Virus record (IMG/VR): IMGVR_UViG_2663763400_000010 | Strand: one strand, 5' to 3' | Source: a virus | Lineage: Duplodnaviria; Heunggongvirae; Uroviricota; Caudoviricetes | Length of the DNA stretch: 42,975 bases | The notes under the pieces: model-generated | What the model saw: the letters and a program-made list of their open reading frames with translations, nothing else | Databases searched by the model: none | What the model was told of the DNA's origin: nothing | Translations under genes and position numbers: made by a program | Shown: one piece after another, positions 4,157 through 42,029 of the stretch | How the letters are laid out: the number at the start of each line of letters is the position of its first letter | Numbering within the stretch: position 1 is the first letter of the stretch

Positions 4157-5019
4157 GCTTCGTCAGCCGTTGTCTCCGGGTGTCGCGTGCGCAGTTGCAC
4201 GTCATTCTCAGACGAGCCGATGACTGGAAGGACGGCCGCCGCAGCCGTCACACGGATGATACGGATGTGCTTCGCCGTATACACCATGTTATCGGAGAGC
4301 TACCCACATATGGTTATCGTCGGGTATGGGCGCTGCTTCGCAGACAAACAGAACTTGATGGTATGCCTGCGATCAATGCCAAACGTGTTTACCGGATCAT
4401 GCGCCAGAATGCGCTGTTGCTTGAGCGAAAACCCGCTGTACCGCCATCGAAACGGGCACATACCGGCAGAGTGGCTGTGAAAGAAAGTAATCAGCGATGG
4501 TGCTCTGACGGGTTTGAGTTCCGCTGTGATAACGGAGAAAAACTGCGGGTCACGTTCGCGCTGGACTGCTGTGACCGTGAGGCACTGCACTGGGCGGTCA
4601 CAACGGGTGGCTTCGACAGTGAAACAGTACAGGACGTCATGCTGGGAGCAGTGGAACGCCGCTTTGGCAGCGAGCTTCCGGCGTCTCCAGTGGAGTGGCT
4701 GACGGATAATGGTTCATGCTACCGGGCGAATGAAACACGTCAGTTCGCCAGGATGTTGGGACTTGAACCGAAGAACACGGCAGTGCGGAGTCCGGAGAGT
4801 AACGGAATAGCAGAGAGCTTCGTGAAAACGATAAAGCGTGACTACATAAGTATCATGCCCAAACCAGACGGGTTAACGGCAGCAAAGAACCTTGCAGAGG
4901 CGTTCGAGCATTATAACGAATGGCATCCGCATAGTGCGCTGGGTTATCGCTCGCCACGGGAATATCTGCGGCAGTGGGCCAGTGATGGGTTAAGTGATAA
5001 CAGGTGTCTGGAAATATAG
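4114..5019 (+). CDS. insD: IS2 transposase OrfB (InsD), DDE catalytic domain; made as OrfAB fusion by -1 frameshift
   Basis: 301-aa ORF overlapping insC in the -1 frame; A-AAA-AAG heptamer at about 4108-4114. Confidence 0.85.
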
Positions 5020-29305: not shown

Positions 29306-30058
29306 TTATCTCGTCACCTTTCTCAATTGTGTTTCAGCATATGCTTCTTCCTGCCAGCACTTTGTTACTAGTTTATCAATTACGTCTGCATATCCTTTGT
29401 ACCACTGATAATCAGTCAGGTCTGGAACCAGCTTCTGGACATGACGTCGTGCCAGTGTAGTCGGTAAACGGCTAAACCGGTTTCCATTGCAACGCCCACA
29501 AGTCTTATAAACAGGCGTGCCATGAAGCCGGGTTCTTTTTTCATCCAGGACAATACCTTTACCCTTACACCCTCTGCACGCCGTGCTGACTTCTCCCTTG
29601 CCATGACAATGCTGACACAGTTCCTTCACCCACTCTTCTTTGATAACGGATTCCCCGCTTCTGGAATGTTTCACCACTTCGCGCAATACATTATGAAATC
29701 CAGTACCAGTACAATGCTCACAGCGAGCCTTACTTGCCGCAGACCTGGAATAATCAGCAAAGGCAAAATTCACAAGGTAAGGGATGATCTGTAACCGGGT
29801 TTCTTCACTCAATTTGTTCAATGTCGGGTTATCCAGTGCCATCGCGTAATTGAGCAGGCCTTCAATCGCAAACTGAGGATCCTGAACACCAACTTTTGCC
29901 AGGAATAAGGCAAACCCAAGCGGTGCTTTCGACTGCACCATCCCCTGCGCAGCCATTACATCCGTAATTGTTAAACCACCCGAGCCTGTCGCCGATGCGT
30001 CATCGCTCAATTTTGGAGATTTTGGGGAGTAATATTTCGGTAAGGCTTCAAGGTTCAT
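29306..30058 (-). CDS. antitermination protein Q-like
   Basis: Several CxxC zinc-finger pairs (CEHCTGTG, CQHCHGKG, CRGCKGKG, CGRCNG); directly upstream of the lysis cassette. ATG at 30058 has a GGAG ribosome-binding site. Confidence 0.65.
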   Translation of the reverse strand: MNLEALPKYYSPKSPKLSDDASATGSGGLTITDVMAAQGMVQSKAPLGFALFLAKVGVQDPQFAIEGLLNYAMALDNPTLNKLSEETRLQIIPYLVNFAFADYSRSAASKARCEHCTGTGFHNVLREVVKHSRSGESVIKEEWVKELCQHCHGKGEVSTACRGCKGKGIVLDEKRTRLHGTPVYKTCGRCNGNRFSRLPTTLARRHVQKLVPDLTDYQWYKGYADVIDKLVTKCWQEEAYAETQLRKVTR

Positions 30059-30071
30059 GCTCGTTCTCCAC

Positions 30072-31067
30072 TTACACCAGTACGCCAATTGCCAGCGCAC
30101 GATCGATAAAACGAAATATCAGCTCCAGCTGGGAGCCATACATCTCTTCAAATGCCACGGTATCCGCATGCAGCTCGTCGTGATGCTTTCTGCACAAAGG
30201 CAACACAAAAAGGTCATGCGCTTTTGTACCCATTCCACCCTGTCCGTGGCCTATCAGGTGGTGGGGATCATCAGCGGGCTTTCCACAACATGCACACGAC
30301 TGTGTCTTAACCCAGCGCGTGTACTTTTCATTAACCCAGCGGCGACGTTTTGGGCGTAACATAAAAGACTCCGGCGACTCCGGATCCACTTTCAGCGCCA
30401 GCACCTTTTTCGCCTTATCCTGGATGATGCTGGTGGCAGGAACCGAAGGCACAAGGTCACTTTCCCGGGTGACAGACGGCACAACAGGCTTCGGTAATCT
30501 CAGTGCCTTACGGGCTGCACTTTCCGGTAAGGCATCCGCCAGATCATTACGAACCAGCCACCAGCACAGTTCCGGCATTGTCACAACGTGACTGTCATCA
30601 AAACCGAGATCCCGACGCACAACAGACAACACCCAGCGGGCACAGTTATCCGTTGCCATTGATTCCAGCCGTTCCGTGAACTGATCGCGAAGCAGGTTAT
30701 CGCAGTGCCAGCACAGACGGATTGCGCCCGGCGCGTGTCGCATTGTGGTCATGTTCTCGCTGTGCCATCCGGAATGAGGCCACTGACAGCCCTTTTCACG
30801 AAGTAACCAGCTTTCAAGACATTCCACACCCCCCGCACGACGAATAACTGCCTCATTGCGGAACACGGCCCGAATGGCAGGATCATCCGCCAGCGGTTGT
30901 GATGCCGCCGGAACGGCACCACTGGCAAAAGATGAATAACGTTCCGGCTCAGGCTCCAGCAGGACACGCCCCTGCATAAACAGGGGCATCAGCTCTGAAC
31001 CGGGCCTGAACAATACGATCCCCATACGCGGGGCAATTTCAGGGGTCAGTAGTGCTCTCACGGTCAC
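30072..31067 (-). CDS. DUF968-like protein with C-terminal HNH-like zinc motif
   Basis: C-terminus CACCGKPADDPHHLIGHGQGGMGTKAHDLFVLPLCRKHHDELH. Confidence 0.55.
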   Translation of the reverse strand: MTVRALLTPEIAPRMGIVLFRPGSELMPLFMQGRVLLEPEPERYSSFASGAVPAASQPLADDPAIRAVFRNEAVIRRAGGVECLESWLLREKGCQWPHSGWHSENMTTMRHAPGAIRLCWHCDNLLRDQFTERLESMATDNCARWVLSVVRRDLGFDDSHVVTMPELCWWLVRNDLADALPESAARKALRLPKPVVPSVTRESDLVPSVPATSIIQDKAKKVLALKVDPESPESFMLRPKRRRWVNEKYTRWVKTQSCACCGKPADDPHHLIGHGQGGMGTKAHDLFVLPLCRKHHDELHADTVAFEEMYGSQLELIFRFIDRALAIGVLV

Positions 31068-34689: not shown

Positions 34690-35028
34690 CTATTTCCCTG
34701 AATTTACGACGAAACTGTTCGAGCGGACTGAAGCATTCATGCTCATAGCCTTCGCGGAGGTAGATAACCCGTTGTGTTTCCGGTTCCCAACGAATGACTC
34801 TGACGGGCACTCCGTAGTGATCTTTGAACCAGCGGTTAACTTGTCGCAAAGGACTGTCTCCTTCTGCCGGTTGAAATCACCCACAGCCCACTCAGCAAAG
34901 CTGTGGGTTACAATTTCCCTGTCACCTGGTACATTTACTGCATAGCAATACTCCACCTTCGCTTTTCCACCCGGTACAGGAAGCGCAATCAGTTGCGAGC
35001 GACGGTAGTGTGTTGTTAAACTGTTCAT
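34690..35028 (-). CDS. hypothetical early protein
   Basis: 112 aa; ATGA overlap with the upstream gene; preferred over the antisense plus-strand ORF because it fits the operon. Confidence 0.45.
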
Positions 35029-35588
35029 GCGTTAGTTTCTCCACAGTCACGACACGCCACGGCGCCCGGAGCTGCACACTCGCGGGCGTCACTACTTTCT
35101 GAAACGCAAAAGATTTTGTAGACCAGTGCTGCATGCTCCTGCAGCTTCGAAATTGAGAGGTACAGCTCATCGTTAATTGCTGTCTTCTCATGCGGTTCCA
35201 CTACACCGTCTTCAATTGCTGAACGAATCTGTTTTGAATAACTGCCGATCTGTTCAATGACCTCCAGCAGGCGTTGGTTGATATCGGCGTTGTCCACATC
35301 CTCGACGTCAGGAAGAGACACAAAGACGCCATTTGCAGACTGCGCCACAGCATCAGCAATGAAGTGAGTGCCACCAGCACGCTGTAAAACCATTGCCCAT
35401 CCCAGCGGGAAAATCTGATCGCCATCTGCACGAAGGCGGTTGAATAAAGCGTTTTCTGTTACATCGAGCCAGTCAGCCGCTTCAGCGTAACCACCCGGCA
35501 ACGCCGCGATCGTTTTTCTGACAGCTTTCACGTACCACTCAGGCTGTTTTTCTATTTTCCAGTGATGCTTACCCACGATTAGCCTCAT
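35025..35588 (-). CDS. hypothetical early protein (cII position)
   Basis: 187 aa directly downstream of the cro-like gene; no motif recognised. Confidence 0.45.
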
Positions 35589-35619
35589 CGTTCTGTGGTT
35601 AAAAATTGAAAGTGTTCTG

Positions 35620-35820
35620 CTAATCTTTCGGATAGATATCCGGTCTTAAGTCAGATTTCGTAATTGCACCTGACGTGCATTGCTCAAGTTTTTTAGCCAG
35701 CACAAAACTGGCTTTTTTATAGCCATTGAAAACCAGCCGTAAGTAGCCAGGTGTTGAGCCAACTTTTCCGGCCAACTCGCCCTGCTGTTCTTTGGTTAAA
35801 GAGTCCCAATACGCTTTCAT
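35620..35820 (-). CDS. Cro-like repressor (66 aa)
   Basis: MKAYWDSLTKEQQGELAGKVGSTPGYLRLVFNGYKKASFVLAKKLEQCTSGAI has an HTH; divergent from cI across the operator region; GGAGG ribosome-binding site. The long ORF-track extension to 36123 is rejected. Confidence 0.6.
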   Translation of the reverse strand: MKAYWDSLTKEQQGELAGKVGSTPGYLRLVFNGYKKASFVLAKKLEQCTSGAITKSDLRPDIYPKD

Positions 35821-35823
35821 ACA

Positions 35824-35846
35824 ATGTGTACCTCCGGTGTACATAT
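35824..35846. promoter_or_regulatory. operator-like palindrome (OR site)
   Basis: ATGTGTAC-CTCCGGT-GTACATAT in the cI/cro intergenic region. Confidence 0.5.
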
Positions 35847-35874
35847 TACATGATTGAAATGAACCTTCAAGATA

Positions 35875-35895
35875 CTTGTACCTTAACGGTACAAG
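35875..35895. promoter_or_regulatory. operator-like palindrome (OR site)
   Basis: CTTGTACC-TTAAC-GGTACAAG; shares the TGTACC/GGTACA half-sites with the first site. Confidence 0.5.
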
Positions 35896-35910
35896 GGTTT
35901 TAATTTCGTT

Positions 35911-36585
35911 ATGAAAACAATCCATGACATCCGGCGGTCTAACGCCAGAAAACTGAGAGATGGTGTTGGCGGGAATTCTTCCTTTGCCACTATGATTGAT
36001 CGCGAGCCAACCCAGACCAGCAGGTTTATGGGAGATGGTGCTACTAAAAATATCGGTGACAGCATGGCACGACACATCGAAAAATGTTTCGACCTGCCTG
36101 TCGGATGGCTCGATCAAGAACACCAGACAACGAACATCACAAAAAAACCTGATGTTTCAATCACTAATAAACAAATCACATTAGTCCCTGTCATATCATG
36201 GGTACAGGCCGGAGCATGGAAAGAAGTTGGATATTCTGAGGTTGATTTGAGCACAGCAGAAACGTATCCCTGCCCTGTACCCTGTGGGGAAATGACTTAT
36301 ATCTTGCGGGTGATAGGTGATTCAATGATTGATGAGTACCGCCCGGGAGACATGATTTTTGTCGATCCTGAAGTACCTGCCTGCCACGGTGACGACGTTA
36401 TTGCATTGATGCACGATACAGGTGAAACCACCTTCAAAAGGTTGATAGAAGATGGGACACAGCGTTATCTCAAAGCGTTAAACCCAAACTGGCCTGAGCC
36501 TTACATTAAGATCAACGGTAATTGCTCTATAATTGGTACTGTGATTTTCTCAGGAAAACCAAGAAGATACAAAATCAAAGCCTAA
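35911..36585 (+). CDS. CI-like prophage repressor (HTH plus S24 LexA-like peptidase domain)
   Basis: C-terminal ...ISWVQAGAWKEV...RVIGDSMIDEYRPGDMIFVDP...TFKRL...KALNPNWPEPYIKINGNCSIIGTVI closely parallels recalled P22 C2/lambda CI (Ser in GDSM, Lys in KRL). Confidence 0.85.
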   Translation: MKTIHDIRRSNARKLRDGVGGNSSFATMIDREPTQTSRFMGDGATKNIGDSMARHIEKCFDLPVGWLDQEHQTTNITKKPDVSITNKQITLVPVISWVQAGAWKEVGYSEVDLSTAETYPCPVPCGEMTYILRVIGDSMIDEYRPGDMIFVDPEVPACHGDDVIALMHDTGETTFKRLIEDGTQRYLKALNPNWPEPYIKINGNCSIIGTVIFSGKPRRYKIKA

Positions 36586-36598
36586 TCAATGTTTATGA

Positions 36599-36621
36599 AC
36601 CTGCTTCGGCAGGTTTTTTTA
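36599..36621 (+). terminator. Rho-independent terminator downstream of cI
   Basis: ACCTGC-TTCG-GCAGGT hairpin followed by TTTTTTT. Confidence 0.7.
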
Positions 36622-36732
36622 TACTTGACAATGTACCTTTGAGATACATAATGTACCCAAGAGAAACAACAAACAGGCAGGACGCCCACGAAGTAGCCGC
36701 CTGGGGCATATGAAGTCCAGGATGATTCGTTA

Positions 36733-36760
36733 GCAACAAAAAAGCGCCCTATAGGACGCT
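36733..36760 (-). terminator. intrinsic terminator downstream of the secreted-protein gene
   Basis: Minus strand reads AGCGTCCTATAGGGCGCT followed by TTTTTT. Confidence 0.45.
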
Positions 36761-36787
36761 TCGCTCTTTAACAATCTGGATGACTTA

Positions 36788-37300
36788 TTACTCAGATTTG
36801 AACTTTGGTTCTGGCAAAAGAGGAGGAGTTGAGTCCTCGAATCGTAGCCAGTGCTCCCAGATATCGTGGGATTGTAATTCCAGAAGACCAATTTGACGTG
36901 ATGCAACTGCAGTGCCAGCTATAGTTCCTCCTGCATAATCAACCTGGACGGACTTTGACGCTTTCTCAATTAATTCTGTCCAAGCTTCACTTTCCGCGTT
37001 AAAAGAAGCAGTTAATTCCTGCAGACGCTGTGGATCATCCTTGTTGTCTTGTTTCAAACGATTCAGGGCGGCCACCGAATACTTATTCTTAACCCAACTA
37101 ACCTGAGCTAACTGAACTCTCTGACAAGCGTCCATATCAGTAGTTGTTTCCTGAGGCATATCAAAGCAGGAAATAAAAAAAGTCTCAACACCATCATTTA
37201 GACTACTGCTCGGCTGGTTCAAAGCATCAGAAGCATTGGATGCTATCGGTATTATCAGTGCTACCGACAGAATCAAACGTTTAACATAAATCGCTCCCAT
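36788..37300 (-). CDS. secreted protein, possibly DUF1311/LprI-like (moron)
   Basis: N-terminal signal peptide (LILSVALIIPIASNA); pattern ...CQRVQLAQVSWVKNKYS... loosely resembles the LprI-family motif. Own terminator, and opposite strand to its neighbours. Confidence 0.45.
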   Translation of the reverse strand: MGAIYVKRLILSVALIIPIASNASDALNQPSSSLNDGVETFFISCFDMPQETTTDMDACQRVQLAQVSWVKNKYSVAALNRLKQDNKDDPQRLQELTASFNAESEAWTELIEKASKSVQVDYAGGTIAGTAVASRQIGLLELQSHDIWEHWLRFEDSTPPLLPEPKFKSE

Positions 37301-37585
37301 TTAATTATCCCCTCTAAGAACAGAGTCATCCAGATTAGCCGAATCCTTGTTGTTGGGGAATAACCAGGCCCACCTCGCCTGATGTGGCTAAAAGCAGGCA
37401 CATAACAGCTAAGTATTTTCAACCAGAGAGAATCCTTAGCGTTGTGGTGAATGCGGCTCAGCGCACGCGGGTTAAGGTTGAGGCTGACAGTCGACCTTCT
37501 GTGGATACCCACCCGCCTGGTGTGCAACCTTCGCCAGGCACCGGGAGGCACCCGGCACCACAACTTTATGCTGTGTGTAGTCCTG

Positions 37586-37631
37586 GCGGTACCAGCTTGT
37601 ACCCTTGCTTCCGGCTGGTACCGCTCTTTTT
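37586..37631 (+). terminator. strong intrinsic terminator-like hairpin in the early-left leader
   Basis: GCGGTACCAGC ...17 nt... GCTGGTACCGC (11-bp stem) followed by TCTTTTT. Confidence 0.5.
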
Positions 37632-37720
37632 ACAAAACAGAGAAGAGCATCACCGGACGACGGGCTCATAACCCAATCCACCCGGGCGGCTGCCACCGCA
37701 GGTGTTCTTCTCTGTTTTGT
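37632..37720. repeat. 15-bp perfect inverted repeat enclosing 59 nt (structured leader element)
   Basis: ACAAAACAGAGAAGA at 37632-37646 and its exact reverse complement TCTTCTCTGTTTTGT at 37706-37720; non-coding. Confidence 0.5.
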
Positions 37721-37768
37721 GGAGAAACCAACCGACCTTGCAGGGTCGATATGATGAGGAGCAGCAAA

Positions 37769-38131
37769 ATGGCTAGCGAACGCAGTACCAACGTGCAGGA
37801 ATTTATCGGGGAGCTGGACGGCGGCGTATTTGAAACCAAAATCGGCGCAGTTCTCAGTGAAGTCGCTTCCGGTGTGATGAACACGAAAACCAAAGGTAAG
37901 GTCTCGCTCAACCTGGAAATCGAACCGTTTGATGAGAACCGTGTGAAAATAAAACACAAACTCTCATATGTTCGTCCGACTAACCGCGGGAAAATTTCCG
38001 AAGAAGACACCACCGAAACGCCGATGTATGTCAATCGCGGTGGTCGCCTGACTATTCTGCAGGAAGACCAGGGACAATTACTGACTCTTGCCGGTGAACC
38101 TGACGGAAAACTCCGCGCAGCAGGTCATTAA
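37769..38131 (+). CDS. YfdP-like early protein
   Basis: ATG at 37769 with a GAGGAG ribosome-binding site (MASERSTNVQEFIGELDGG...); recalled to resemble CPS-53 YfdP. The upstream in-frame extension of the ORF track (from 37451) is rejected. Confidence 0.5.
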   Translation: MASERSTNVQEFIGELDGGVFETKIGAVLSEVASGVMNTKTKGKVSLNLEIEPFDENRVKIKHKLSYVRPTNRGKISEEDTTETPMYVNRGGRLTILQEDQGQLLTLAGEPDGKLRAAGH

Positions 38132-38196
38132 TATCGTTCTTAATTAACTGATTATTTATCTCATCACTGAATATCTTTATATAGTGAGGACTTATT

Positions 38197-39021
38197 ATGT
38201 CTCAGAACTTAGACGCAACCGCAATTAATCAAATCCATGCCCTTATTTCTGCTCAGGGTGTTAATGAAATTATCAGTAAGATTGGTGCCGACGCAGTGGC
38301 ATTACCTGAAAATTTCCGCATTCATGATCTGGAAAAATTTAATTTAAATCGCTTCCGTTTCCGTGGTGCGCTTTCCACTGCCAGCATCGATGACTTTACC
38401 CGTTATTCTAAAGATCTTGCGGATGAAGGCACCCGCTGCTTTATCGATGCCGATAATATGCGTGCCGTCAGTGTGCTTAACCTGGGTACTATTGATGAGC
38501 CTGGTCACGCAGATAACACCGCCACTCTCAAACTGAAAAAGACAGCACCGTTCTCTGCTCTGTTGTCTGTTAACGGCGAGCGTAACTCCCAGAAGTCACT
38601 GGCAGAATGGATTGAAGACTGGGCCGACTACCTTGTGGGCTTTGATGCTAATGGTGATGCCATTCAGGCAACAAAAGCGGCTGCGGCAGTCCGTAAAATC
38701 ACGATTGAAGCAAACCAGACCGCTGATTTTGAAGACAATGACTTCAGCGGCAAACGCTCCCTGATGGAGTCTGTCGAAGCGAAGACCAAAGATATTATGC
38801 CAGTGGCATTTGAATTTAAATGCGTTCCGTTTGAAGGCCTGAAAGAACGTCCGTTTAAATTACGCCTCAGCATTATCACTGGCGATCGTCCTGTACTGGT
38901 TCTGCGCATTATTCAGCTGGAAGCAGTGCAGGAAGAAATGGCTAACGAATTTCGTGATCTGCTTGTTGAGAAATTCAAGGACAGCAAAGTAGAAACCTTT
39001 ATTGGTACTTTTACCGCCTGA
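38197..39021 (+). CDS. YfdQ-like protein (DUF2303)
   Basis: 274 aa, same length and gene order as recalled CPS-53 yfdP-yfdQ-yfdR; good ribosome-binding site. Confidence 0.55.
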
Positions 39022-39148
39022 TTTCATTACTGCAAATGCCCCTGCGGGGGCATTTATGGAAACGTAATTGACTCAATAATCGCCGGATGGTGAGGGCTTT
39101 CTTTTACCAGAATTCAGCGCGGTGCAGCGCATATACGTGGAGAACAAA

Positions 39149-39673
39149 ATGTCATTTATTAAAACTTTTTCCGGGAAGCATTTTTATTATGACAGGATAA
39201 ATAAAGACGACATCGTTATTAACGATATCGCGGTTTCTCTTTCAAATATCTGTCGCTTTGCAGGACATCTTTCACATTTCTACAGCGTCGCCCAACATGC
39301 GGTGCTTTGCAGCCAACTGGTACCGCAGGAATTTGCTTTTGAAGCGTTAATGCATGATGCAACAGAAGCGTATTGCCAGGACATCCCGGCGCCACTGAAA
39401 CGCCTTCTTCCTGACTATAAACGGATGGAAGAAAAAATAGACGCCGTAATCCGTGAGAAATACGGGTTACCCCCGGTTATGAGTACGCCCGTGAAATATG
39501 CCGATCTCATCATGCTGGCAACCGAACGCCGCGATCTCGGGCTTGATGATGGCTCTTTCTGGCCCGTACTGGAAGGTATCCCGGCAACAGAGATGTTCAA
39601 AGTTATTCCACTGTCGCCAGGCCATACCTATGGGATGTTTATGGAACGCTTTAAAGAGTTAACTGAGTCGTAA
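39149..39673 (+). CDS. HD-domain phosphohydrolase (YfdR-like 5-prime-deoxynucleotidase)
   Basis: H...HD metal-binding motifs (SVAQHAV...ALMHDATEAY); ATG at 39149 with GGAG ribosome-binding site preferred over GTG at 39122. Confidence 0.7.
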   Translation: MSFIKTFSGKHFYYDRINKDDIVINDIAVSLSNICRFAGHLSHFYSVAQHAVLCSQLVPQEFAFEALMHDATEAYCQDIPAPLKRLLPDYKRMEEKIDAVIREKYGLPPVMSTPVKYADLIMLATERRDLGLDDGSFWPVLEGIPATEMFKVIPLSPGHTYGMFMERFKELTES

Positions 39674-39781
39674 AAATCAGCACGTACGAATTCAAACTCT
39701 GCCATAAAAGAACATATAAGTAATTTATTAACATATAGATATAGGTTATATTACAAATTGAAAAATTATTGGAGAGCAACA

Positions 39782-40648
39782 ATGAATCAAAATCCATTCT
39801 CATTCTATGACTTTCTTGGATATTTAATACCAGGTGGTTTTTTTATCCTATTAATGTATTTCTGTGGTTTGACATTCGATCTAGATATTGTTATTGACTT
39901 AAGTGAATTGCTCAGAGGTCAAAGTCAAATCTTTGGCATTTTGAACTACGCTTCAATAGTTATTATATCTTATATAGCTGGACATTTTATTTCTATCACG
40001 TCAGCATTTTTTATCGAAAAATACATGAATAAAGAATTAGGATATCCTTCCAAATATCTATTTAAAAAATTGATAGATACCTCAGAAAGCATTTGTAGCC
40101 CATCATGCGATGAGAGAAGCGCTGATAAAAAAACAAAAATAAAGAATCGCATAATCAAATGCGTATTATGTCCAATAATACTATGGGATTTTATAACACA
40201 AAAACTATGTTATTCTCAATCTCTACCATTTCATTTAGCTAATACAACATGGTTAATGATCAAAGAAGGTTATGAGAAAAAGTTCATAACAAATCGCCAA
40301 TTATTACAAGATAAAAACGGACTTGATGATGATCTCTTCAGATTGGCATATCATTATGTTTATGAGTTTTCAAAACAACATCAAACAAAAATTCAAAACT
40401 ATGTTGCATTATATGGTTTTTGCAGAAACATATGTTTAATCTTTATAATTTCATTTTGGGTATCAGTTCCAACCTTTATTTATCGATTATGTACTCATAG
40501 TGATTATCTTTATAGTTTACTTTCAATAATGCTTAGCTTTTTCTTCGTCTATGTTTTCTATGTTGGTTTTGTTAAATTTTATAGAAGATATACTTTAGAA
40601 GTATTAATGGCATTTGCTGTACTTCAAAGTAACGACACTATTCGTTAA
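39782..40648 (+). CDS. AT-rich multi-pass membrane protein of unknown function (moron next to xis/int)
   Basis: 288 aa from ATG at 39782 (GGAG ribosome-binding site); about four hydrophobic helices (two N-terminal, two C-terminal) around a ~120-aa soluble region; GC far below the flanking genes; AT-rich upstream region of its own. Confidence 0.6.
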   Translation: MNQNPFSFYDFLGYLIPGGFFILLMYFCGLTFDLDIVIDLSELLRGQSQIFGILNYASIVIISYIAGHFISITSAFFIEKYMNKELGYPSKYLFKKLIDTSESICSPSCDERSADKKTKIKNRIIKCVLCPIILWDFITQKLCYSQSLPFHLANTTWLMIKEGYEKKFITNRQLLQDKNGLDDDLFRLAYHYVYEFSKQHQTKIQNYVALYGFCRNICLIFIISFWVSVPTFIYRLCTHSDYLYSLLSIMLSFFFVYVFYVGFVKFYRRYTLEVLMAFAVLQSNDTIR

Positions 40649-40689
40649 TAATGTTGCTCCCGTGTGCAGACGGGATAATGGAGAAACGT

Positions 40690-40896
40690 ATGCTGAACCT
40701 CGATTGTGTTCCTATCTCAACTTATTGCAAAGAAACTGGCGAAACTCCTGAAGCAATAAACAAACGTGTACAGCGCGGTGTTTGGCGTGAAGGTGTTCAG
40801 GTTTTAAAGGTTGAAGGCGTTAAGGAGAGGTGGATTGATCTTAGTGAGGTTGCAAAATGGGCCAGACAAAACTGCTCAAACTACCGCGCGGCGTAA
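40690..40896 (+). CDS. xis: excisionase-like DNA-binding protein
   Basis: Small basic protein immediately upstream of and overlapping int; ATG at 40690 with GGAG ribosome-binding site. Family assignment is tentative. Confidence 0.45.
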   Translation: MLNLDCVPISTYCKETGETPEAINKRVQRGVWREGVQVLKVEGVKERWIDLSEVAKWARQNCSNYRAA

Positions 40897-42029
40897 CAAT
40901 CAGGAAACACCACCAGGGAGAAACGATCAATATAACTTTCACCTACAAAGGAGTTAGATGTCGTGAGCCGCTTTCCAATCTGGAAGTAACACCAAAGAAC
41001 ATTAAATACGCCGAGCGTACACTCGGCGAAATCCATAATAAGATCGAAAGGGGAACATTCATTTATGCAGAATATTTTCCCCGTTCTGCTCGTTTGAAAA
41101 TTTTTGGTAATGCTGCTGCAAGCAAAACGGTAAAGATGTACCTGGACGAATATCTTGAAATCTGCGAAACAAGAAAACTTTCACCCTCTACGATTGGTGG
41201 CTATAAAAAATGCCGTAGTGCGTTAGCCTCACTTCACATTTGCCCTGCAAGTGAATTAACACCAGCAACCCTGAAAGCGTGGATTCAAAGCCAGAAAACA
41301 ACCTTAAAAACCATTCGCAACCAGTTATCTTTCCTACGGTCAGCACTTGATGAAGCCGTGACCGATGGGGTACTTCAAATTAACCCCGTATCGTTAGTAA
41401 CAGCTTCGCGCTACCAAAGTGATAAGTCAGAAGCAGAAAGCAGCTATGTGGTTGATCCGCTATCACCAGCAGAAGTTGATGCATTACTAGCAGCAGCCGG
41501 AAACAAACAATGGGAAAATCTGTTCCGGTTCGCCATACATACAGGCCTGCGTAGTTCTGAATTATGTGCCCTACGATGGCATGATATCGACTTTGTTGGA
41601 AAAACAGCCCATGTTCAGAGCGCAAGTGTTGTCGGAGTTATCAAAGGAACAAAGACAAAAGCCGGTACCCGTAAAGTTGAACTGACTGAAGAAGCAATGT
41701 TGGCGTTGATAAACCAGAAGCCATTTACATTCATGAAGGATGCTACTGTCTTTGAAGATCCAAAGACCAATAAACCCTGGGCAAGTGCTGATGCAATTAG
41801 GAAAAAAGCATGGGTGCCAACATTGCGAAAAGCAGGTATTCGTTACAGAAACCCATATCAAACCAGGCATACATTCGCCACCAGCCATATCAGCCGGGGA
41901 GCAAACCTGTTTTGGCTTGCGGCTCAAATGGGCCATAAAGGGCCTGAAATGTTATTCAGGCACTATGGACAATACTTGAAAGAGTATGATGGGAGGGCAA
42001 GTATCAAGGATAAAAAGGCTTTATTTTAA
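40857..42029 (+). CDS. int: tyrosine integrase (phage integrase family)
   Basis: 390 aa; C-terminal catalytic region with ...RHTFATSHISRGANLFWLAAQMGHKGPEMLFRHYGQY (R...H..R...Y) and an N-terminal arm-binding-like domain. Confidence 0.85.
   Translation: MGQTKLLKLPRGVTIRKHHQGETINITFTYKGVRCREPLSNLEVTPKNIKYAERTLGEIHNKIERGTFIYAEYFPRSARLKIFGNAAASKTVKMYLDEYLEICETRKLSPSTIGGYKKCRSALASLHICPASELTPATLKAWIQSQKTTLKTIRNQLSFLRSALDEAVTDGVLQINPVSLVTASRYQSDKSEAESSYVVDPLSPAEVDALLAAAGNKQWENLFRFAIHTGLRSSELCALRWHDIDFVGKTAHVQSASVVGVIKGTKTKAGTRKVELTEEAMLALINQKPFTFMKDATVFEDPKTNKPWASADAIRKKAWVPTLRKAGIRYRNPYQTRHTFATSHISRGANLFWLAAQMGHKGPEMLFRHYGQYLKEYDGRASIKDKKALF

Follow-up and report, generated by a model that had tools for sequence, protein, structure and literature searches.

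Positions 37301-37768 of virus record IMGVR_UViG_2663763400_000010 (42,975 nucleotides (nt) in all, called the window here) form a modular RNA leader that is not translated and lies within the early-left (PL) transcription unit of a prophage. The first half of the leader is a promoter-less variant of a known, functionally unexplained RNA family, STnc100/PasD, and the second half is a conserved RNA not described before. The module identities, their structures and order, and the absence of coding come directly from the analyses described below. As to function, we give slightly better than an even chance to a terminated STnc100-type small RNA (sRNA) and attenuator ahead of yfdP, the first gene behind the leader.

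An untranslated leader inside the PL transcription unit

The window carries an SfV/ST64B/e14-type lambdoid prophage, and its sequence is 100% identical to UTI89. An earlier reading made from the letters only (the sequence-only reading) had called the region a highly structured leader of the early-left operon. The structure was confirmed, as the leader from 37341 to 37775 (435 nt) folds at -182.7 kcal/mol (z = -5.6, 0/100 shuffles); fold energies were compared with shuffled sequences throughout, 100 for the whole leader and 200 for each element. The region also lies inside the PL transcript, although PL is not adjacent to it. PL and its operators were placed because their repeats are shared with OR, where a repeat search found the operator motif TGTACC-N5-GGTACA twice as well (35827-35843 and 35877-35893).

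35911-36585, + strand: S24-peptidase repressor (cI-type)
36625-36652, + strand: early-left promoter PL, TTGACA-16-CATAAT, 11/12 match to the sigma-70 consensus, directly after the cI terminator (36597-36616) and overlapped by operators
36632-36648 and 36652-36668: OL operators, two 17-bp sites, TGTACCTTTGAGATACA and TGTACCCAAGAGAAACA, with the motif shared with OR
37769-38131, + strand: yfdP-like coding sequence, 120 amino acids (aa), first gene after the leader; start fixed by 10 homologues, annotated YfdP in UTI89

PL lies about 650 nt upstream of 37301. The region 37301-37768 begins about 640 nt into the transcript and the structured core about 780 nt into it, and the untranslated leader measures about 1.1 kb from the PL start to the yfdP ATG. 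In relatives the gene order is cI, a long unannotated gap and yfdP.

The sequence-only reading had found no credible open reading frame (ORF) here and had taken the translated ORF track for an artefact, and both views were borne out by the yfdP start in homologues and by Pfam. The 226-aa ORF at 37451-38131 is an upstream extension of yfdP. In all ten yfdP homologues checked, an ATG stands exactly 24 nt before the conserved VPDF(I/L)GELD motif, which corresponds to 37769 in the window, and several of them have in-frame stops 27-81 nt upstream of the motif. The 95-aa ORF at 37384-37671 had no Pfam match. RefSeq labels the region 'frameshifted hypothetical protein' in UTI89. In the e14 prophage of K-12, where the same leader is fused to xisE-intE, it is labelled ymfH (b1142; 4570-4881 of locus L405), whose start is a GUG inside GGUGAAU and which lies wholly on the RNA leader (core with a decayed P5, terminator and element 2, as defined below). 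A 'ymfH' over-expression clone triggered the RcaT toxin of retron-Sen2 in a screen (bioRxiv 10.1101/2020.06.22.160242), an effect that might be caused by the RNA. Of 5426 complete E. coli genomes, 2809 carry the region, mostly at an identity of at least 95%.

The STnc100/PasD-type core

Judged by covariance models and by its predicted fold, 37441-37564 is a divergent, promoter-less member of the STnc100/PasD family. The Rfam model STnc100 (RF02076) matched 37411-37633 over its full length (1-206/206) with 45.4 bits (E = 3.3e-8 local, 8.8e-7 for the whole window), and it was the sole Rfam E-value match in the window. The Rfam search proposed in the sequence-only reading named a family in E-value mode, while nothing reached gathering score over the whole window. 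Among the labels offered in that reading, 'small RNA' is the best single one, for this first half. The predicted helices are as follows.

37441-37449 / 37556-37564, + strand: P1
37450-37452, + strand: J1/2 linker, AAU
37453-37468, + strand: P2
37469-37472 / 37511-37514, + strand: P3
37515-37520 / 37534-37539, + strand: P4, whose loop holds s1' (CAACCUU)
37474-37480 / 37525-37531, + strand: pseudoknot of s1 (AAGGUUG) with s1' (CAACCUU) in the P4 loop
37541-37555, + strand: P5, CCGGG-AGGCA-CCCGG

With these predicted pairings the core takes the form of a tRNA-like five-way junction, which P1 closes and the pseudoknot locks. P1 is the long-range pair noticed before: GTTGTGGTG at 37441-37449 is indeed complementary to CACCACAAC, although the second strand lies at 37556-37564, 4 nt from the position of about 37552 given for it. 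The core architecture and the invariant nucleotides of STnc100 (CCGGGAGGCACCCGG adjoining the P1 3' strand) are present in the window.

Homologues were gathered by blastn and by scanning viral contigs, and a single genome of each species, for sequence patterns, and the STnc100-type family proved very large across Enterobacterales. In copies of the window's kind, designated A-type, P2 is GCGGCUNAGCGCACGC rather than the CCCCCUNNGCGGNGGGG of canonical members. Seventeen A-type copies were used to build a covariance model, which found 144 cores in 100 loci, with one in the window at 112 bits and canonical members at 35-75 bits; only one of about 15 A-type loci passed the Rfam cut-off. Covariation was calculated over 138 distinct sequences. 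For P1, P2 and P5, 95.8% of the cells were paired, with double (compensatory) changes in 15 of the 19 pairs, which was matched in 0/500 shuffles (slid controls, 39-53%). The s1/s1' helix keeps a constant position with about 90 different sequence pairs, and it has at least 6 Watson-Crick bp in 46% of 68 representatives (<80% identity) versus 5.8% of cross-pairings (p = 2e-22). The paired regions are thus conserved in related phages, as the sequence-only reading had asked to see, with compensatory changes both in the core and in element 2.

STnc100/PasD RNAs are expressed, Hfq-associated prophage sRNAs whose function is unknown (PMC5331693; bioRxiv 10.64898/2026.05.13.724894; PMC12370729), although seed regions have been predicted for them. 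EDL933 has 11 family copies, one of which was verified by Northern blotting (PMC5331693), and PasD/STnc100 were recovered as Hfq-RIL-seq sRNAs (bioRxiv 10.64898/2026.05.13.724894). The window's core resembles these prophage sRNAs of Salmonella and pathogenic E. coli in P1 (GGUG/CACC), the AAU, a P2 loop of the CUNAGCG type, a P4 loop that pairs upstream, and CCGGG-AGGCA-CCCGG abutting the P1 3' strand; it is likewise prophage-borne and followed by an intrinsic terminator. It differs in location, as A-type copies lie in the early-left leader (PL side) or in P1-like tRNA operons and not between Q and the lysis genes. Canonical copies often have a sigma-70 -10 element 12-16 nt upstream of GGUGAAU (a peak at 9-15 nt in the count of -10 elements), and so are primary transcripts starting at P1. 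Among 59 A-type copies, one has a promoter-like site (at least 9/12) in the 120 nt upstream, outside the 9-15 nt position, and the window has none; a covarying P0 hairpin and a C/A-rich strand stand upstream of A-type cores instead of a promoter. A-type copies are found with a terminator (E. coli, ST64B, phiES15), without one before a Shine-Dalgarno sequence and ATG (P1-like tciA, L212 yfdP), and inside tRNA operons.

Other family members occur in arrays of up to six cores with one promoter and one terminator. Four to six head-to-tail cores were seen in L192 (6395-7023), L207 (4132-5932), L166 and L201 (Pantoea, Superficieibacter and others), and L192 has four cores between a single promoter and a single terminator. 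Array copies have AACG/CGUU or CUAUG/CAUAG in place of the otherwise invariant inner P1 pairs GGUG/CACC, so even these pairs covary.

Two modules precede the core.

37341-37407, + strand: element 0, a degenerate partial core repeat with the block CCACCUCGCCUGAUGUGGCUAAAAGCAGGC (37370-37399) and the C/A-rich strand CAUAAC (37401-37406)
37408-37413 / 37435-37440, + strand: P0 hairpin, GCUAAG / CUUAGC, -18.9 kcal/mol, z = -4.4

Element 0 includes a direct repeat (37341-37358 versus 37430-37447), and its block 37370-37399 is kept in SfV, phiES15, L125, L139, L256, L328 and K-12 e14. This block, ACCACC-NN-GCCUGAW-GUGG-N-AAAAG-N-CAGGC, could form a small pseudoknot, for which covariation was not seen. 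The strand 37400-37407, CACA(U/C)AACA, which also occurs in L004, L085, L116 and L161, matches the C/A-rich GcvB target/AgvB-type motif CACAACA; AgvB had no Rfam match at the window. P0-equivalent hairpins with unrelated sequences and loops stand before A-type cores in P1-like phages and at other loci. An alternative helix, anti-P1, is formed by CAUAAC (37401-37406) with GUUGUG (37441-37446); it extends P0 and forms in the minimum free energy (MFE) fold of the full leader.

Linker and terminator

37565-37584, + strand: single-stranded linker, UUUAUGCUGUGUGUAGUCCU, candidate seed region
37585-37631, + strand: intrinsic terminator, 13-bp G+C-rich stem followed by UCUUUUU; -23.7 kcal/mol, z = -4.1, 0/200 shuffles

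The terminator reported in the sequence-only reading at 37586-37631 was found again, with perfect 11-bp arms (37586-37596 / 37614-37624) that flanking pairs extend to 13 bp and with UCUUUUU at 37625-37631. It aligns with the 3' terminator positions of the RF02076 model. E. coli, Salmonella ST64B and Cronobacter phiES15 all retain the linker motif UGCUGUGUG(U/A)AGUC despite their differing terminators, and it is also found behind different upstream cores. The G/U-rich conserved part of the linker (37569-37582) is a candidate for pairing in trans. An antiterminator alternative to the terminator stem was considered and rejected: pairing of the linker with P5, together with anti-P1, leaves the terminator intact, and the linker-P5 pairing shows no covariation. 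Expression of 'ymfH'-xisE-intE co-varies in K-12 with that of the PL-side gene ymfJ (PMC12132413), which would fit some read-through of the terminator. No further strong terminator was found in 37700-42000.

Element 2, a second conserved RNA before yfdP

The segment 37632-37720 is, as far as predicted pairing and covariation define it, a conserved three-way-junction RNA that was previously undescribed.

37632-37651 / 37701-37720, + strand: element 2 outer stem (20 bp), extendable to 25 bp by 37627-37631 / 37721-37725, which pairs the U-tract with GGAGA
37653-37656 / 37682-37685, + strand: element 2 arm Pb, with the hairpin GGG-CUCAUAA-CCC (37662-37674); a CCGGR/CCCGG arm across copies
37686-37699, + strand: element 2 arm Pc, a variable hairpin
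37721-37768, + strand: proximal yfdP 5' untranslated region (UTR), with conserved GGAGAAAC, a small hairpin (37733-37748) and the Shine-Dalgarno sequence GAGGAG (37756-37761)

The perfect 15-bp inverted repeat around 59 nt (37632-37646 / 37706-37720) was present exactly as the sequence-only reading had given it. The suggestion of a recombination site did not hold, and the repeat is no loose hairpin; it is the stem that closes a conserved tRNA-derived three-way junction. Element 2 folds at -49.2 kcal/mol (z = -8.05, 0/200 shuffles) and has no Rfam family match. Among 16 diverse copies, 89.8% of the cells were paired, with double changes in 10 pairs (0/500 shuffles; slid controls, 38-50%). In an alignment with K-12 metY, the 14 nt CGGGCUCAUAACCC at 37661-37674 are identical to the anticodon stem-loop of the E. 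coli initiator tRNA-fMet.

Element 2 ends 49 nt upstream of the yfdP start codon, and the yfdP 5' UTR is conserved together with it in homologues; the hairpin 37733-37748 alone was no better than shuffles (z = -0.4). Terminator, element 2 and yfdP 5' UTR (37584-37768) make up a separate mosaic unit, which is found at 97-99% identity in mEp460, cdtI and Stx2a/Stx2c phages with other upstream cores. In Klebsiella phages, the element-2 inner domain stands directly after tRNA-Asn/tRNA-Arg, downstream of Q, with a short unrelated closing stem ending ...CAGGCCACCA. In L248 (2005-2075; Klebsiella phage GZ7) and L247, the inner-domain copy is closed by a 6-7-bp stem ending ...GGCCACCA, like an acceptor stem with discriminator base and CCA; this copy may be an unannotated mini-tRNA-like RNA.

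The arrangement recalls the lambda N leader and tL (nutL, an RNase III hairpin before N, and tL1), with a long untranslated PL leader, a big perfect duplex just before the ribosome-binding site of the first gene, and a terminator gating the int-side genes. It differs in that the present prophage has no recognisable N and the region no boxA or boxB, and that the duplex encloses a three-way junction with a copy of the tRNA-fMet anticodon arm rather than being a simple RNase III site.

Probable tRNA ancestry of the family

At two loci, L315 (1077-1203, - strand) and L301 (1800-1925, + strand), a tRNA-like gene stands in the position of the core, with the same P0 strand and hairpin upstream. These RNAs scored 43.9 and 40 bits with the Rfam tRNA model, and ARAGORN read them as tRNAs, Met/CAU for L315 and Glu/CUC for L301, whose anticodon loop carries an insertion of 44-46 nt. 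Their acceptor stem, GUUGUGGU/ACCACAAC, is the P1 of the core. In L301 and L328 the P5 stem is changed to GGUGG/CCACC and the AGGCA loop is kept. P1 beside P5 mirrors an acceptor stem beside a T arm. From this we infer that the STnc100-type family is probably tRNA-derived, a statement that was not found in the searched literature. In the window itself ARAGORN found no tRNA gene, and there was no Rfam tRNA match at E<=10. A relaxed ARAGORN run gave a single call with a 296-nt intron, which was judged absurd.

Similar cases are C4 of P1/P7, CI of P4 and IsrK of Gifsy, which are also promoter-less structured RNAs with a tRNA-like layout inside temperate-phage operon transcripts. C4, CI and IsrK are small phage RNAs cut from longer transcripts, and their tRNA-like features are recognised by RNase P. 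They differ from the window's RNA in belonging to other Rfam families and in their sizes and folds. By analogy, processing of the leader's RNA by RNase P is offered as a conjecture.

A conserved RNA at the start of the PL transcript

A further conserved RNA was found some 700 nt upstream of the leader, outside the coordinates of the sequence-only reading, and may well be the put-like cis-acting RNA that was sought within them.

36668-36731, + strand: PL-proximal conserved RNA of about 62 nt, candidate put-like, with outer helix 36669-36673 / 36726-36730, hairpin GGC-AGGAC-GCC and hairpin II 36700-36704 / 36717-36721
36762-36774, + strand: rrn-type boxA-like sequence CGCUCUUUAACAA, about 100 nt into the PL transcript, adjoining the terminator hairpin (36741-36762) of a moron

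The PL-proximal element begins about 8-10 nt after the predicted PL start and has an invariant 27-nt core, AGGCAGGACGCCCACGAAGUAGCCGCC, flanked by two covarying helices. Variants of the outer helix are GCGAA/UUCGC, CCACC/GGUGG and UCAUC/GAUGA, and those of hairpin II are CCUGG/CCAGG, CCGGU/ACCGG, CCGAC/GUCGG and others. Among 56 sequences, 87.8% of the cells were paired with 133 double changes, and the score was 0.538 versus 0.130 for shuffles (0/500; slid controls, 21-45%); RNAalifold independently predicted the same helices. The element was seen in over 100 viral contigs and some 50 phage records, where it stands behind promoters of dozens of immunity types with unrelated operators. Its hosts are phages of Escherichia, Shigella, Salmonella, Citrobacter, Klebsiella, Yersinia, Pantoea, Pectobacterium and Aeromonas, and it is also present in K-12 e14. 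It is unannotated and has no Rfam match, and its core was not found in the searched literature, though a description in King et al. 2011 (new put RNAs) is possible.

The HK022 put system is comparable in that N is lacking and the PL transcript contains a structured RNA before a terminator. The 36668-36731 element in particular resembles putL in standing where the PL transcript begins, in size (about 62-70 nt), in a multi-stem build and in its N-less hosts (PMC9378689). Neither this element nor 37301-37768 is alike to put in sequence, and there is no PR-side copy. A blastn-short comparison of window positions 35000-38200 with the HK022 immunity region returned only chance 10-14-mers. The 8-mer CAGGAUGA, common to put and 36668-36731, has a different structural position in each and was treated as coincidence. 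With a crude finder, 54 distinct loci had 1.65 terminators per 1.5 kb downstream of the element in the sense direction versus 2.11 in antisense, which tells little about enrichment. Of the two RNAs, 36668-36731 is the better candidate for antitermination, as its position, size and conservation suggest.

CGCUCUUUAACAA matches 12 of 13 positions of the rrn boxA consensus. It is the sole PL-side match to the boxA pattern, which has none inside 37301-37768; the window has four boxA-like matches versus 1.24 expected, which is of weak significance. The cassette of hairpin and boxA-like site after the PL element also occurs in L023, L053, L321, L390 and L391, and the boxA-like site is absent from SfV, ST64B and mEp460. 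The site, being part of the moron terminator cassette, was rejected as an antitermination signal of the leader. A role in shielding the long untranslated leader from Rho is conceivable, and so is mere coincidence.

Proposed mechanism and alternative explanations

Transcript ends, processing, action in trans, attenuation and antitermination enter as parts of the following model. On induction, inactivation of the cI-type repressor would allow PL to fire. The polymerase would cross about 780 nt of untranslated RNA, antisense to the moron, and then transcribe the STnc100-like domain. Most transcripts would end at 37631, which would yield a stable structured RNA; its 5' end would be made by processing, which is proposed because A-type copies have no promoter of their own. 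The exposed G/U-rich linker could then pair in trans, by analogy with the Hfq-associated STnc100/PasD members. The same terminator would serve as an attenuator or insulator limiting yfdP-yfdQ-yfdR-xis-int. Polymerases that read through, possibly made terminator-resistant by the 36668-36731 RNA, would continue through element 2. With its long duplex and its tRNA-mimic arm, element 2 lies where it could influence the processing of yfdP or the start of its translation.

Several points weigh against this reading. The match to RF02076 misses the gathering score of 47 bits by 1.6 bits, and expression and Hfq association have been reported for canonical members, not for A-type ones. In the MFE fold of the full leader, P1 is replaced by anti-P1 and the linker is paired with P5, and the native core fold may, by this folding model, depend on processing or on tertiary contacts. 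With only five U's, the U-tract is shorter than is typical of Hfq-dependent sRNAs. Some A-type copies without a terminator stand directly before a start codon (P1-like tciA, L139/L140/L146, L212 yfdP), which fits a cis-acting leader better than a free sRNA. Finally, it is from position, size and conservation that the 36668-36731 RNA may be given a role in antitermination.

The main rival, which we regard as unlikely though deserving to be kept in view, makes the STnc100-type domain a sensor that acts in cis, either like a riboswitch or by binding of a protein or tRNA, and sets termination, linker exposure or translation; the 'sRNA' would then be a terminated by-product, as with SroA and SroG. 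The build is aptamer-like, with P1 closing a multi-helix junction with a pseudoknot and with AAU, CUNAGCG and AGGCA invariant while the stems covary. Canonical loci have the order promoter, core, terminator and cargo gene, and many copies stand directly before a Shine-Dalgarno sequence and ATG without a terminator. The alternative pairings anti-P1 and linker-P5 are predicted, and P1-like phages have a U-to-C change in the 5' strand of P1 for which the P1 3' strand, and likewise the upstream strand, shows a matching change. However, the downstream genes have no common theme (yfdP, kil, tciA, esterase, lipoproteins, tRNAs), and up to six back-to-back cores per transcription unit are unlike riboswitches. 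The terminator stem lies outside the alternative pairings, the linker-P5 pairing shows no covariation where P5 has become GGUGG/CCACC, and the upstream C/A strand is perhaps the remnant of a preceding tandem copy. No Rfam riboswitch model matched 36700-38300 at E<=10 or the whole window at E<=0.1.

It is quite improbable that the region is evolutionary debris, that is, a decayed phage tRNA cluster with recombination scars at a mosaic joint, transcribed and functionless beyond its terminator. Such an origin would suit the 14 nt of tRNA-fMet in element 2, the T-arm-like hairpins in P0 loops, the tRNA-like genes with the same acceptor stem at the core's position in L315 and L301, the module borders that are mosaic joints (e.g. 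at about 37584), and the damaged P5 of the e14 copy. Against decay stand the many compensatory changes in the core, element 2 and P0 across distant hosts, the fold of element 2 that is kept with a wholly different outer stem in Klebsiella, and the presence of the region, mostly at 95% identity or more, in the 2809 complete E. coli genomes noted above.

Still less probable, to the point of being very doubtful, is that 37301-37768 is itself a nut- or put-type processive antitermination site, both of which types the sequence-only reading had suggested. There is no recognisable N, the region lies in the PL operon ahead of a terminator, and RNA-mediated (put-type) antitermination was suspected in the ST64B/LLS phage group by a 2025 paper (PMC12315714). 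The N/nut-like version nevertheless fails in that the region lacks boxA and boxB and that no N gene turned up. The put-like version fails in that the region has no similarity to HK022 putL or putR and exists in a single copy, which is not promoter-proximal but about 640 nt (core, about 780 nt) from the transcript start rather than just after PL. The put fold has two stems in 70 nt (PMC9378689), unlike the five-way junction of 124 nt here, and canonical members of the family are free-standing genes, each with a promoter and a terminator of its own.

The chance that the region encodes a protein (the 95-aa or 226-aa ORF, or YmfH of K-12) is negligible: open frames, the ymfH and UTI89 pseudogene annotations and the phenotype of the 'ymfH' over-expression clone speak for it, but there is no Pfam match, the frame is broken in homologues, the yfdP start is kept at 37769, and substitutions track base-pairing rather than codons.

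Beyond the preferred sRNA-attenuator reading, we entertain a wider scheme, speculative and on balance rather unlikely, in which N-less prophages of the SfV/ST64B/e14 type would run the early-left operon by all-RNA control. Its parts would be the 36668-36731 RNA, which would render the polymerase terminator-resistant as put does, a tRNA-derived STnc100-type module excised in the manner of a tRNA (sometimes in arrays of up to six, or with a true tRNA-like gene in its place) and the initiator-tRNA anticodon-arm mimic of element 2, the last two together acting as a checkpoint or as a tRNA-mimic effector or decoy.

Neighbouring genes and rejected promoters

29306-30100, - strand: Q antiterminator
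36788-37300, - strand: secreted-protein moron, antisense inside the PL transcription unit, with its own terminator hairpin (36741-36762)
40857-42029: integrase

The minus strand carries the cro-like and cII-like genes, separated by a gap of only 31 nt. Q was found, and no ORF flanking the immunity region had an N-family Pfam match. The moron had no Pfam match either; firing of PL would collide with it or silence it. In phiES15, L125 and L139, an extended -10 promoter (TGgTATACT/TGgTATGCT) for a divergent moron lies on the opposite strand beside the 37370-37399-type block, and it is absent from the window. Two candidate promoters were rejected. The only one for the RNA itself, a weak TTAACA-16-AATTAT (37281-37308), overlaps the moron start codon and is not kept in relatives, and TTTACA (37629-37634), read from the sequence after the terminator, has no -10 partner. 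The right operons of the close relatives SfV, mEp460 and ST64B carry C4 antisense RNA and/or isrK (immI-type antirepressor control; L001 1226-1414, L002 323-511, L003 21-97), and neither was found in the window at Rfam gathering score.

Implications

Relabelling ymfH as RNA would remove a phantom gene together with a recurrent 'frameshifted pseudogene', in a leader carried by about half of the complete E. coli genomes. The tRNA-like fold of STnc100/PasD RNAs, with its conserved pseudoknot, and their occurrence as free genes, operon leaders and tandem arrays would favour a structure-based role (protein, enzyme or ribosome mimicry, or sensing) over simple seed pairing. Taken together, the leader and the PL-proximal element may offer a testable answer to the question of how N-less lambdoid phages pass their early-left terminators, for which K-12 e14 and UTI89 are ready experimental systems.

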